In this document: piece after piece, positions 27,661-30,553 of the stretch
Numbering within the stretch: position 1 is the first letter of the stretch
Layout of the letters: each line of letters starts with the position of its first letter
Assembly (NCBI GenBank): GCA_021817655.1
Contig: JAKAGE010000001.1
Location: 1 to 36,023, forward strand
Length of the DNA stretch: 36,023 bases
Source of the DNA: a bacterium
GTDB taxonomy: Bacteria > Patescibacteriota > Minisyncoccia > UBA6257 > 2-01-FULL-56-20
Direction: 5' to 3'
Program-made: the position numbers and the translations under genes
The notes under the pieces: model-generated
The model's database searches: none
What the model saw: the letters and a program-made list of their open reading frames with translations, nothing else
What the model was told of the DNA's origin: nothing

Positions 27661-28179
27661 TTACCCCATCCGCCTCCCCAAAAGCTCCCGCCGCAGAACA
27701 AGCGGATCCCCCACGACCGACCGGACCACGTCCCAAAAGCGAACGGAATGGTTCATCTCCACCCGATGCGCAAGCTCGTGGACGATCAGATAGTCCTGCA
27801 GGTGCGGCGGCAGGAACACGATCCGGTAATTGAAGTTCAGGTTCCCCGATCGGGAACAGCTTCCCCACCGCGTCTTCTGGTCCCGCACAAAGATGCGCGA
27901 AAACGACACCCCCAGCACCGACGCAAAGAACGGAACACGCGCCGAAAGGAACTCCCGCGCACGCTCCCGATGCTCCAGGTATTCCCTCCGCCGCAAAAGC
28001 GTCCTCTTCTGCCGCATCACCCACCGCGCATGCCGCCGCACGAACCGCTCCCCCGCACGCACCGACACCCCCGCCGGCGTCGTGAGCACCACCTCCCCGC
28101 TTGCCATGATAGCAAGACGTATCCTCTTTGCCCGGGCACTGGTGTGGTGGGTAAAGGAGATGTGAGTAGAAAATAGCAT
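27661..28179 (-). CDS. DUF45/YgjP-like (M48-related) zinc metallopeptidase, about 172 aa
   Basis: WGSCSRSGNLNFNYRIVFLP and HELAHRVEMNHSVRFW (HExxH...NHS). The start at 28179 is chosen so the gene does not overlap the upstream gene. GC is host-like. Confidence 0.8.
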   Translation of the reverse strand: MLFSTHISFTHHTSARAKRIRLAIMASGEVVLTTPAGVSVRAGERFVRRHARWVMRQKRTLLRRREYLEHRERAREFLSARVPFFASVLGVSFSRIFVRDQKTRWGSCSRSGNLNFNYRIVFLPPHLQDYLIVHELAHRVEMNHSVRFWDVVRSVVGDPLVLRRELLGRRMG

Positions 28180-28216
28180 GAACCGACTTATCTTTCTCTT
28201 AAATTTTCTTGCAAGC

Positions 28217-30121
28217 TTACCGAAACAGCTTAACCGCCCGCTCAATCCCAACAACAGGCTTACCAGACATAGAATTTTTAAAATACTCTTGAGTCTCCTT
28301 ATCGGTGCAATAAATATAACAACCCTTCATGCCTCGCGTCATCAGGGTACGATAAGTATTTTTAATGATCGCATCCGCTTTCTGAGCAGCCAACTCAGGA
28401 TTTTCCTTGAAATATTTTTTATACCCTTTTAACGAAGCATCTGTTTTTGCTCTTTTACTTGGATCGGTGATTATTTTCCCATCGCGCACAATTAAATCAG
28501 GTCCAATAATTACCCCGACATAATCGACTTCAAGGCCCTGACACGTATGAATGCAACCAATTTCATTCACGGAATTCGGAGAAATAATCCAAACATTTCC
28601 GTCGCTTGCAAGATTCCACTTCATCTCAAACCCATATTCCGGAATAGAAATATCCTTGGCGTTTTTATCTTTTTTAGTCCAATTCCAACAATATCCCGCA
28701 ACGAGACGAGCTTTATTATCGACCTTATTCTTTTTAAAGATAATATCTCTCAGCGCAATTGGAGAATCAAGAACCTCAAAATCATATTTAATATCATCGA
28801 GTGTTTTATTGGCTGTTTCTTCTATCTGTAGAACATTATCAAGCCACGCAAGATAGCCATCGGAGCCATTACAACGAAACTGTGATTCGAGCTTAAGGCG
28901 TTGTATTTTTGCTCCAGTTTTATTTGCCCATTTTTCAATTTCTTGAGTTTCGCCAATATCCCCCCAGGTTACTTTTTGATCCTCATCGATGAAAAATATA
29001 GAGCATTTTGCGGCTTCCATAATTTCCTTAATCTGATTCTCACCCATATTCTTAAACATTCCCGACCTTTCATTTAATCGATGAGCCTCGTCTACAATAA
29101 GCGCATTAAAAGTATTTTGTTTGCAGTTTATATAAGAGCCAGAGCTAGAAAACATATTTGAATATTCAGTCTTTTTAAGAGTCTTCGTAAGTTTAGATTC
29201 AAACACCGCGCGGGGCGCCGCATTTTTAGTGACATATTGAGTATTTAATCCAAGTTTTGTAATTGCAACCAAAAGATTGATGGCTACAACTGATTTTCCG
29301 GTGCCCGGACCTCCTTCTACGATGAGAACATTCTTATTCTCTTCGCCCGATTTTTTTGCCAATGCGAGCGCCGTCTCGTAAACAACTTTCTGATCGTCAA
29401 TCATAATGAATTCGGGATTGCCCTTGATCATCGAAGCAAGACTATCCGCTAAATTCTTAGATGGCCGAATATCGCCGTTATCAATTCTATAAAGCGTATT
29501 TTTATTATCGCCATGTTTTACAAACCGAGCAATAAAATCTTGGAGTTTTTCTTTGTCTCCTTTACAAAAGGCAGGCGCTTTCTGTAAATAGTCCCCGTAA
29601 AAAGTGTCTTTTACAACGCTTTCATCAACACAGTTATGCAAATATGCGCATGGCTCGAGTCCTATTTTTTCTTCATATACCGTTGCATTAAATCCATAGA
29701 GCAACGTCGCATACGACCACGCCTGATATGAAGGATGAAGATGCTCCCCCAATCCTTGTTTTAAACGAGTGATAACCATAGCATCTTTTTCGGTGGATTG
29801 GATTTCGGTCCACTGTTTAAGTTCCACGATCACCACCTTTTCCCCTCCCTGGTCATCGAGTCCGGTAATAAGAAAATCGATCCTATTTCGCGTTCGGGGA
29901 ATCGAATATTCGATTGCAACGCCAGCATCATCCGGTATCTTATCCGTATTCATTGCGTGATACATAGCATTGCCAAGCGAATTTTTCCACGATTCATATT
30001 CGCCGCTGCCGGGCTTCACGTCGATATTAAGTTTCTCTCTTACGCAAGCACGAACTTTGTCCTCTATATTGCTCGCAGCATCGTTTAAAAATCCTCTTTT
30101 GGTGCTGGAATAAACAATCAT
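28217..30121 (-). CDS. DUF2075-type protein: N-terminal PD-(D/E)xK nuclease-like domain fused to an SF1 helicase-like P-loop NTPase, 634 aa
   Basis: E71...D82(IDFLI)...E100-L-K102 nuclease-like motif. Walker A GGPGTGKS (aa 270-277), Walker B LIVDEAHR (aa 341-348), and C-terminal IHTCQGLEVDYVGV helicase motif. About 38-40% GC, against about 62% in flanking DNA. Confidence 0.85.
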   Translation of the reverse strand: MIVYSSTKRGFLNDAASNIEDKVRACVREKLNIDVKPGSGEYESWKNSLGNAMYHAMNTDKIPDDAGVAIEYSIPRTRNRIDFLITGLDDQGGEKVVIVELKQWTEIQSTEKDAMVITRLKQGLGEHLHPSYQAWSYATLLYGFNATVYEEKIGLEPCAYLHNCVDESVVKDTFYGDYLQKAPAFCKGDKEKLQDFIARFVKHGDNKNTLYRIDNGDIRPSKNLADSLASMIKGNPEFIMIDDQKVVYETALALAKKSGEENKNVLIVEGGPGTGKSVVAINLLVAITKLGLNTQYVTKNAAPRAVFESKLTKTLKKTEYSNMFSSSGSYINCKQNTFNALIVDEAHRLNERSGMFKNMGENQIKEIMEAAKCSIFFIDEDQKVTWGDIGETQEIEKWANKTGAKIQRLKLESQFRCNGSDGYLAWLDNVLQIEETANKTLDDIKYDFEVLDSPIALRDIIFKKNKVDNKARLVAGYCWNWTKKDKNAKDISIPEYGFEMKWNLASDGNVWIISPNSVNEIGCIHTCQGLEVDYVGVIIGPDLIVRDGKIITDPSKRAKTDASLKGYKKYFKENPELAAQKADAIIKNTYRTLMTRGMKGCYIYCTDKETQEYFKNSMSGKPVVGIERAVKLFR

Positions 30122-30123
30122 CT

Positions 30124-30471
30124 TTAAAGCTCGTTATATTTAGCGTGACTTCCCTTAGCTTTTTCAACAGGATACTTTTTTTCATTCTTCTCCATCTTCT
30201 TATCAAGGGCATCAAAAACATCAATGCCGAGATCGTGAGATAATAGCAAAACCCAATACAGCGTATCAGCTAATTCCTCACCAATTTCAGTTTTATGGGA
30301 TTCAACATATTTCTCCATCTCTTGCGCGTTCTTCCATTGGAATTGTTCAAGAACTTCCGCAGATTCCAAAACCAGCGACAACGCTAAATCCTTCGGATTA
30401 TGAAACTGCTTCCAATCCCGAGCCTCTCGGAAGGCAAGCATTCTCTGCAAAATCTTTTCGTGCCGCTCCAT
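30124..30471 (-). CDS. MazG-like nucleoside triphosphate pyrophosphohydrolase, 115 aa
   Basis: FREARDWKQFHNPKDLALSLVLESAEVLE and IGEELADTLYWVLLLSHDLGID motifs. The stop codon is 2 nt from the DUF2075 start. Low GC. Confidence 0.8.
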   Translation of the reverse strand: MERHEKILQRMLAFREARDWKQFHNPKDLALSLVLESAEVLEQFQWKNAQEMEKYVESHKTEIGEELADTLYWVLLLSHDLGIDVFDALDKKMEKNEKKYPVEKAKGSHAKYNEL

Positions 30472-30553
30472 GAAATTAAATAAAGACTAAAAAATATTAA
30501 ATCTTTATTAAATCCTACCCCTCTAAAAAGGGTTTGTAAAATATAGCTATTTG

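Follow-up and report, generated by a model that had tools for sequence, protein, structure and literature searches.

Here we describe a two-gene cassette in a 36,023-nucleotide (nt) stretch of a Patescibacteria genome (contig JAKAGE010000001.1, positions 1 to 36,023 of the forward strand), which was analysed as a whole and is called the window below. One gene encodes a MazG-like nucleoside triphosphate (NTP) pyrophosphatase and the other a protein that joins a putative nuclease to a DUF2075 helicase. Sequence comparison gives good support to the view that the latter is a nuclease-helicase of the Nhi-like or PDC-S41 type with a conserved MazG partner and, in relatives, an optional S24 switch, which makes the pair a candidate defence module. 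We consider it probable that the cassette is a horizontally acquired two-gene module against phages or plasmids, located in a defence hotspot downstream of fusA, with the nuclease-helicase as effector and MazG acting on the nucleotide pool. The core of this proposal, an acquired MazG-like and DUF2075 pair serving defence, goes back to a first-pass annotation of the same DNA; gene neighbourhoods, a break in base composition, protein architecture and the restriction genes of sister genomes agree with it. All coordinates refer to the window, and the cassette lies on the minus strand together with the DUF45 gene, the toxin-antitoxin pair and the tRNA-Arg next to it. The cassette consists of the following features:

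30124-30471, minus strand: gene for the MazG-like protein (115 amino acids, all-alpha NTP pyrophosphatase of the DCTPP1/RS21-C6 type); open reading frame (ORF) with a match to Pfam PF12643

28217-30121, minus strand: gene for the nuclease-helicase (DUF2075, 634 amino acids); ORF that starts 2 nt past the stop codon of the MazG-like gene

29348-30121, minus strand: N-terminal domain of the nuclease-helicase (residues 1-258), putative PD-(D/E)xK or NERD-like nuclease, from motifs and a structural model

28301-29335, minus strand: superfamily 1B (SF1B) helicase domain (residues 263-607) of the DUF2075 or Schlafen group 3 type; PF09848

30472-30552, minus strand: AT-rich leader between tRNA-Arg and the start codon of the MazG-like gene, partly homologous to the leader at locus L005

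The two ORFs, at 30124-30471 and 28217-30121, are the pair of coupled genes with a 2-nt gap that the first-pass annotation had described, and the Pfam searches it proposed returned the MazG-like, DUF2075 (SLFN-g3_helicase) and YgjP-like families, all above threshold. Homologues of the 634-residue protein number more than 8000, and the top 120 share 72-90% identity with it; those among the 120 that carry a source name come from bacteria of the candidate phyla radiation (CPR). PF09848 (SLFN-g3_helicase, formerly DUF2075) matched residues 263-607 over its entire length (profile positions 1-354 of 354, E 4.7e-109, 365.3 bits against a cut-off of 24), and NCBIfam yielded no specific family. The motifs named in the annotation, GGPGTGKS, VDEAHR and TCQGLEVD in the helicase and E71, D82, E100 and K102 in the N-terminal domain, were all present and proved invariant in 65 close homologues; the Walker A sequence GGPGTGKS, DEAH and the arginine-finger sequence YRTLMTRG were kept across homologues. 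An AlphaFold2 model of the protein (predicted local distance difference test score (pLDDT) 85, predicted template modelling score 0.83) had SLFN11, RecD2, Dda, Dna2 and Upf1 (E 1.7e-10 to 1e-6), together with a Helitron helicase, as its top structural matches, and in Foldseek SLFN11 ranked best (1.7e-10), followed by RecD2 (1.1e-9), Dda (3.7e-7) and Dna2 (1.1e-6). With these motifs and a modelled fold of two RecA lobes, the helicase part is assigned to SF1B.

The N-terminal domain is, on several lines of evidence, a putative nuclease. E41, E71, D82, E100-L-K102 and Q133xxxY137 were invariant in 51 distant homologues from different phyla, and we take the last of these to be the RecB-type QxxxY motif. 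A model of the domain (pLDDT 84) places E41 in a helix (40-57), which is followed by strands 67-73, 80-88 (with D82) and 94-102 (with E100 and K102) and by a helix (130-149) bearing Q133xxxY137; in the model, the order of these elements corresponds to the canonical placement of the PD-(D/E)xK motifs. Lenient Pfam scans detected NERD (PF08378) below threshold in 15 of the 51 homologues, with a best E of 0.0016, and touched a few other PD-(D/E)xK families. Independent support for a nuclease comes from relatives in which a GIY-YIG-like domain takes the place of the N-domain (see below). The annotation had described an N-terminal PD-(D/E)xK-like motif: the motif residues and the order of the modelled elements agree with such a domain, while the fold searches against PDB and BFVD, detailed further below, did not confirm it. 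The N-domain forms 1516 clusters at 50% identity; the non-fragmentary proteins that contain it are mostly about 600-650 or about 785-815 amino acids long, and in most of them it begins at or near residue 1.

The MazG-like protein matched PF12643 with an E-value of 1.2e-18 (67.6 bits against a cut-off of 27). Among PDB sequences, matches over nearly its full length included the archaeal pyrophosphatase 4qgp (1.4e-21) and dCTP pyrophosphatase 1 from mouse (8e-18) and human (9e-13). In 73 partners linked to DUF2075 genes, E36, E39, E66 and D69 were 100% conserved, as were K92, Y100 and P101, and R18, W20 and H24 were conserved at 99%. Such strict conservation argues that the enzyme is under selection as a catalyst, and we infer from its sequence a catalytically intact (d)NTP pyrophosphatase of the DCTPP1 type. 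The 115-residue pyrophosphohydrolase of the first reading is therefore borne out both by the Pfam match and by its retained acidic metal-binding residues.

Composition sets the cassette apart from its surroundings. The cassette stretch (28217-30471, minus strand) has a guanine-plus-cytosine (GC) content of 0.40 in a genome of 0.60. In sliding 400-nt windows, GC averaged 0.395 (range 0.358-0.453) within 28200-30550 and 0.602 (standard deviation 0.045) in the remainder of the 36-kb window, and none of the 322 outside windows reached down to the GC of the highest inside one. The break that the annotation had noted is thus present; its right-hand edge is softer than the limit given there, with GC of 0.48-0.54 until about 31000. 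Third-position GC was 0.44 in the MazG-like and 0.37 in the DUF2075 gene, compared with 0.69-0.92 in the DUF45, SocA, metK, TspO, DinB, fusA and rpsG genes. This foreign composition supports horizontal acquisition of the cassette. Nucleotide homology with loci L001 (83%) and L005 (78%) was limited to 30518-28275, that is, to the two genes and a short leader, about 47 nt of which (to 30518) are homologous to the leader of L005. The locus also occurs on contig DAIDIL010000005.1 (GCA_027459395.1, L093), where the MazG-like protein is identical and the 634-residue protein differs at two residues, A15T and G176A. Scans for promoters and terminators gave results no better than chance, including a single weak sigma-70-like match in the leader (30540-30512) at chance level.

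The gene pair is conserved far beyond this genome. When each GTDB species was represented by a single genome (185,579 genomes), a scan yielded at least 591 relatives, of which the best 80 (54-74% identity) were analysed. Their sources included Bacteroidota, several proteobacterial classes, Verrucomicrobiota, Nitrospira, Desulfobacterota, Chloroflexota, Planctomycetes, Acidobacteriota, CPR groups and one metagenome-assembled genome of Methanobacterium, more than 10 phyla overall. Of the 77 species loci with upstream sequence, 68 have a MazG-like gene as their immediate upstream neighbour in the same orientation, and 3 more have one within 2 kb; among close homologues, the 115-residue version preceded the helicase gene in three different genomic contexts. 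The pair was also found on an archaeal plasmid, from Halalkalicoccus, and on a Priestia plasmid. Across 73 pairs the spacing between the two genes ranged from -32 to +72 nt, with 5 nt or less in 42 pairs and a 4-nt overlap in 20, and the identity matrices of the two proteins correlated with a Mantel r of 0.44 that none of 2000 permutations reached. Nothing beyond the single locus speaks for the alternative that two unrelated genes happen to lie side by side in an AT-rich island; linkage across phyla, coupled spacing and co-variation together exclude chance adjacency, and we regard this explanation as refuted.

The partnership was also evident in the reverse direction. We selected 80 metagenome loci solely by a MazG relative (60-72% identical), 73 of which had room downstream. 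In 31 of these the same nuclease-helicase architecture followed directly, and 19 further loci had a DUF2075 helicase match downstream, so that about two thirds (50 of 73) carried one. Among the 19, twelve DUF2075 proteins started right after MazG with a different N-terminal domain, three (L109, L110 and L119) were separated from it by a RadC-like gene of about 230 amino acids, and ORF calling left four unassigned. Among the variants scanned are proteins with a GIY-YIG-like domain in place of the PD-(D/E)xK N-domain, followed by helicase and Peptidase_S24; in L126 (4333-6351), GIY-YIG covers residues 29-90 (just below the Pfam cut-off), the helicase 175-509 and S24 546-661. MazG is tied to the helicase core, and the nuclease head is exchangeable. 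On Bacillus thuringiensis plasmids, the gene for a DUF2075 protein of 25% identity is separated by an HNH gene from that of a nearby NTP pyrophosphohydrolase. The neighbourhood that the first-pass annotation had put up for checking in public genomes therefore exists in many phyla.

We then considered what else surrounds the pair elsewhere. The immediate neighbours in 80 species loci included no conserved third gene, and the commonest family, HNH_2, accounted for 9 of 140 neighbours. Fic/DOC, RhuM, DUF3427, PLD, nSTAND3 and strong matches to the PADLOC profiles PDC-S05 and PDC-S23 recurred, and MrcB_N-HNH and type I or type III restriction-modification genes were found as well. On a Priestia aryabhattai plasmid (NZ_CP083270.1, L193, 960-7845), where the pair lies in a defence island of a cultured host, the order is restriction endonuclease, MutT, MrcB_N-HNH, MazG-like, DUF2075 and type I restriction-modification; here the MrcB_N-HNH gene, which resembles a type IV methyl-directed enzyme, overlaps MazG by 4 nt. 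A Hymenobacter canadensis plasmid (NZ_CP114769.1, L090, 5001-8987) carries two tandem DUF2075 genes without MazG, adjoining a BPTD_3080-family restriction endonuclease, a methyltransferase and DUF4747. Other neighbours of MazG were RadC, HNH, NOV_C, Vsr and an N4/N6 methylase with an MvaI/BcnI endonuclease. As a separate observation, a protein of about 660 amino acids with tetratricopeptide repeats (TPR) and a HELVH (HExxH) motif is encoded immediately before MazG in about 10% of loci (L078, 1693-3678; L092, 2629-4647; and 6 others); the two that were compared are 41% identical, and the protein may be an optional third component.

At its own site, the cassette occupies a segment whose content changes between close relatives. 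Elongation factor G of the host shares 80-87% identity with proteins named Candidatus Paceibacterota or Minisyncoccia, which assigns the host to Patescibacteria. Three sister genomes (L189, L190 and L191), whose elongation factor G is 89-94% identical, share the flanks and carry different cargo. Between the hairpin after fusA and the SocA pair, L189 has an uncharacterised 235-residue gene, an EcoRI-like methylase and a GmrSD_N-HNH type IV enzyme; L191 has a methylase and a Tsp45I endonuclease directly after fusA; and in L190 DUF45 follows fusA after 105 nt, with no cassette. Nucleotide synteny with L189 breaks at 31013 and returns at 27661, and cargo GC is 0.40-0.43 in each case, compared with about 0.60 in the flanks. 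Since restriction cargo is swapped downstream of fusA in close relatives, the site is a cargo-exchanging defence hotspot in this Paceibacterota lineage. The hotspot and its surroundings comprise:

27662-31012, no strand assigned: variable segment of the fusA-downstream hotspot with the tRNA region, cassette and DUF45; from the synteny break relative to L189

30553-30626, minus strand: tRNA-Arg(TCT) with a defective acceptor stem; ARAGORN

27661-28179, minus strand: DUF45/YgjP gene (ATG at 28179), 37 nt downstream of the DUF2075 gene; YgjP-like PF01863, 6e-40

26914-27600, minus strand: antitoxin gene with HTH_3 and SocA_Panacea domains, 228 amino acids; Pfam

26529-26924, minus strand: 131-residue ORF, putative new toxin partner of the Panacea antitoxin, overlapping the antitoxin gene by 11 nt

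The left border of the hotspot is marked by an imperfect hairpin at 30977-31096, just past the fusA stop codon, with 31-nt arms that are 87% complementary and 58 nt apart; it lies inside stretches that share about 78-86% identity with L189, L190 and L001. The tRNA-Arg that the annotation had placed beside the cassette was found at 30553-30626. Its 3' acceptor strand reads CTGGTGC and that of the L001 orthologue CGAGGGC, a difference of three substitutions; it has two non-standard acceptor pairs and scores 41.9 bits in Rfam, compared with 72.8 bits for the tRNA-Ala of the window. The tRNA-Arg junction is identical in three independent assemblies and is therefore not an assembly error, and the gene may be a decaying or island-borne copy. 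In the closest sister genomes no tRNA-Arg(TCT) follows fusA. Classical tRNA integration was considered and rejected, as we found neither an integrase nor a flanking direct repeat and the tRNA is missing from the site in the closest relatives; the tRNA thus stands as a neighbour of the cassette and not as a classical integration site. That no integrase is present had been stated before and holds for all window ORFs from fusA to the toxin-antitoxin pair. On the opposite strand from tRNA-Arg, a tRNA-like fragment (30697-30785, plus strand) contains a T-arm, GGGGTTCGACTCCCC, and an acceptor-like end; it overlaps an 18-nt inverted repeat (30715-30732 and 30841-30858, 94% complementary) and gave no convincing match in Rfam (mascRNA-menRNA, E 0.14; cyanobacterial tmRNA, E 0.73).

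The DUF45 gene, which the first reading had entertained as a possible third cassette gene, did not withstand the comparison: it neighbours the module in no more than 1 of 80 loci, has host-like GC and third-position GC, and stands alone after fusA in the cassette-free L190. The pair of SocA/Panacea antitoxin and 131-residue ORF is kept in L189 and L005, and the 131-residue ORF (26529-26924) has no match in Pfam, PADLOC or NCBIfam. Further along, a SAM riboswitch (RF00162) at 26365-26474 on the minus strand (44.5 bits, gathering score 44.4) lies upstream of a short (332 amino acids) S-adenosylmethionine synthetase gene at 25293-26291.

Many relatives of the 634-residue protein are longer at the C-terminus. 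Peptidase_S24 (PF00717) is found there in over half of the closest homologues and in 25 of the 73 paired relatives, for example L009 (6001-8310, P0082) and L103 (4384-6675). The consensus comprises a VPLxDLKxAAG segment, GESM with a serine and TVK with a lysine, which we take to resemble the cleavage site and the serine and lysine motifs of LexA. These motifs suggest self-cleavage stimulated by RecA bound to single-stranded DNA (ssDNA) as a switch in these relatives. The window protein ends at residue 634 and showed no S24 match in Pfam.

Based on these findings, we propose the following working model. The SF1B helicase of the DUF2075/Schlafen type would translocate, driven by ATP, on invading or replicating DNA, and would thereby bring along the N-terminal PD-(D/E)xK (NERD-like) nuclease, which would degrade this DNA on the same principle as in Nhi and Nhi-like. 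The co-translated MazG-like pyrophosphatase would act on the nucleotide pool, where its most likely role would be the removal of non-canonical deoxynucleoside triphosphates (dNTPs) such as 5-modified dCTP. Phages could thereby be kept from making modified, restriction-resistant DNA, while the host chromosome would stay free of such bases and self would thus be spared from the nuclease-helicase. About a third of relatives, of which the window protein is not one, carry an S24 autoprotease of the LexA/UmuD type with an Ala-Gly site, through which RecA-ssDNA filaments probably trigger activation. Three points lead us to favour a role of MazG in clearing modified or non-canonical dNTPs: its homology to DCTPP1, the modification-dependent nucleases that recur among the neighbours, and the sensitivity of Nhi-like to methylation. 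Loss of their own DNA methylase lets phages escape Nhi-like, which implies that this system is modification-sensitive, and DUF2075 genes beside modification-dependent endonucleases have been noted previously. A bolder extension, to which we give a small chance, would be that self and non-self are told apart via the nucleotide pool rather than by DNA marking: the nuclease-helicase would attack DNA with non-canonical bases such as 5-modified cytosine, and the obligately co-expressed DCTPP1-type MazG would prevent dNTPs of this kind from entering the host chromosome and starve phages that modify their DNA, amounting to a two-gene system of type IV restriction plus pool sanitation found across bacteria and archaea, with the S24 switch linking it to RecA-ssDNA sensing in many relatives.

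Several observations weigh against an immune module of this kind, whose role in defence is predicted from sequence comparison. No Pfam family scored above threshold in the N-terminal 258 residues; a Foldseek search of the N-domain model against PDB was not significant, with EndoMS/NucS, itself a PD-(D/E)xK enzyme, as best match (E 0.088, probability 0.51); the BFVD viral models gave nothing significant; and a profile search of PDB sequences with the N-domain returned no match. All PADLOC matches of the window protein were partial (PDC-S41 3.6e-16; Nhi/AbiO 3e-11), and the Nhi profile (PDLC02372) matched residues 258-419 only, over profile positions 198-332 of 470, with the same result for relatives. 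Nine of the 77 DUF2075 loci lack an adjacent MazG, and 23 of the 73 MazG loci have no DUF2075 match in the downstream sequence scanned, which in several was shorter than 1 kb. The two genes are thus common partners, although each can occur without the other. Finally, the S24 domain and neighbours such as RadC, DinB and Vsr would also fit a role in DNA damage or repair.

This last point leads to a rival that we judge improbable, namely a DNA-repair or house-cleaning operon in which MazG sanitises the dNTP pool and a Dna2/RecD-like nuclease-helicase processes damaged DNA or stalled forks, under SOS-type control via S24 in relatives. It gains from the intact Ala-Gly, Ser and Lys motifs of S24 in about a third of relatives, from RadC, Vsr, MutT and DinB genes near several loci, from Dna2 and RecD2 among the structural matches, and from the fact that DCTPP1 homologues are house-cleaning enzymes. 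A repair operon fits poorly, however, with the patchy spread (at least 591 matches among 185,579 species genomes, in many phyla, at 55-74% identity), with the foreign composition, with sister genomes that lack the pair and have restriction genes at the same site, and with the restriction and defence-candidate genes that recur as neighbours. Rather improbable, too, is a toxin-antitoxin-like or abortive-infection pair, in which the nuclease-helicase would be toxic and the upstream MazG would serve as enzymatic antitoxin or as a regulator hydrolysing an activating nucleotide. The small, translationally coupled upstream gene, the strictly conserved catalytic residues of MazG and the adjoining toxin-antitoxin pair would suit such an arrangement, and MazG is encoded together with mazEF in E. 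coli. Yet the DUF2075 protein occurs without MazG in the nine loci mentioned above and on the Hymenobacter plasmid, MazG of this clade also lies beside NOV_C, HNH and type II restriction-modification genes, and no nucleotide-sensing domain was detected in the effector.

Very improbable, in our view, is a module left in the chromosome by a phage or other mobile element whose own replication, nucleotide takeover or counter-defence it once served. Phages often carry MazG genes, the cassette has low GC and lies next to a tRNA, and one GenBank record, 'Microcystis phage Mwe-JY31' (PP438423.1, 22 kb, L092), carries the pair in the order TPR-MazG-DUF2075. This is the only close homologue (59%) in a phage record, and every gene of that stretch is annotated as hypothetical. 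In all, 2-3 distant relatives (28-34% identity) were found in 2.9 million viral contigs of IMG/VR, and 4 of 50,697 phage records held relatives. We rejected a phage origin of the module on this near absence; moreover, integrase, structural and replication genes as well as flanking repeats are missing from the locus, and between hosts only the two genes are homologous at the nucleotide level. Taken together, the repair, antitoxin and phage-derived explanations are less well supported than an acquired immune module.

If validated, the cassette would represent an immune module of two genes with a wide distribution, which covers at least 591 species genomes, many bacterial phyla and archaeal plasmids. 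Two modes of action hitherto studied apart would be united in it: foreign DNA is degraded by motor-nucleases (Nhi, Nhi-like and Schlafen-type helicases) in one, and the dNTP pool is manipulated in the other. It would offer a handle on what prokaryotic Schlafen-type helicases sense and a testable partner for MazG domains, so far only predicted to be defensive, and it suggests that a LexA-like autoprotease, joined to an effector, serves as an activation switch. Little is known of the defence repertoire of Patescibacteria (CPR), in which the module is particularly frequent.

Comparison with known systems places the cassette close to, but outside, those that have been named. Nhi (SERP2475 of S. 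epidermidis) combines PD-(D/E)xK with an SF1B helicase (DUF2075) in a single-protein defence (Bari et al. 2022), and Nhi-like is organised in the same way but shares no sequence identity with Nhi, its nuclease being listed as NERD (Millman et al. 2022). The window protein shares with both an N-terminal PD-(D/E)xK/NERD-type nuclease, here putative, and a DUF2075 SF1B helicase in one chain of about 600 amino acids, as well as a defence context, so that the resemblance to Nhi-like factors noted in the first-pass annotation holds at the level of architecture. In contrast to the cassette, descriptions of both systems give a single protein without a MazG partner, and NERD matches are below threshold in the window clade. 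Membership in Nhi or AbiO was rejected, as only the N-lobe of the helicase matches (3e-11). PADLOC, proposed as a check by the same annotation, gave partial matches to PDC-S41 and Nhi/AbiO and no system call. Among the papers that could be searched, none contained both DUF2075 and MazG and none mentioned PDC-S41; we found no description of the MazG partner, in line with the view that the pairing belongs to no named system.

PDC-S41 is the best PADLOC profile and the most similar candidate. Its partial matches are collinear and its length is similar (657 profile positions); it matched the N-domains of 51 of 51 homologues (best 2.9e-9) and the C-terminal helicase at 3.6e-16. It differs in that the window match is partial (profile positions 5-92 and 391-624, with the middle unmatched) and in being a single-gene, unvalidated candidate. 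Schlafen group III proteins (SLFN11, SLFN13 and SLFN14) share the full-length PF09848 match, SLFN11 is the top structural match, and they have an antiviral or genome-guarding role; the N-terminal core of these eukaryotic proteins is a tRNA endoribonuclease fold rather than PD-(D/E)xK, and they have no MazG partner. In relatives with S24, PF00717, the AAG-type site, GESM and TVK are shared with the autoproteases LexA, UmuD and lambda cI, whereas S24 is fused there to an effector instead of a DNA-binding repressor domain and is lacking from the window protein.

On the side of the pyrophosphatase, DCTPP1/RS21-C6 and 4qgp align over nearly the full length of the MazG-like protein, which keeps their acidic metal-binding residues. 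They are stand-alone house-cleaning enzymes, in contrast to the MazG-like gene, which is operonic with a nuclease-helicase and horizontally mobile. In a different architecture, a defensive role of MazG domains has been predicted but not validated (DeWeirdt et al. 2026); there, MazG is combined with a MazG-C kinase domain, unlike the pairing with a nuclease-helicase seen here. Nucleotide-depletion defences such as dCTP deaminase and dGTPase likewise place a dNTP-pool enzyme in an immune locus; they differ in enzyme folds and partners, whereas the window cassette pairs its predicted pool enzyme with a putative DNA-degrading motor.

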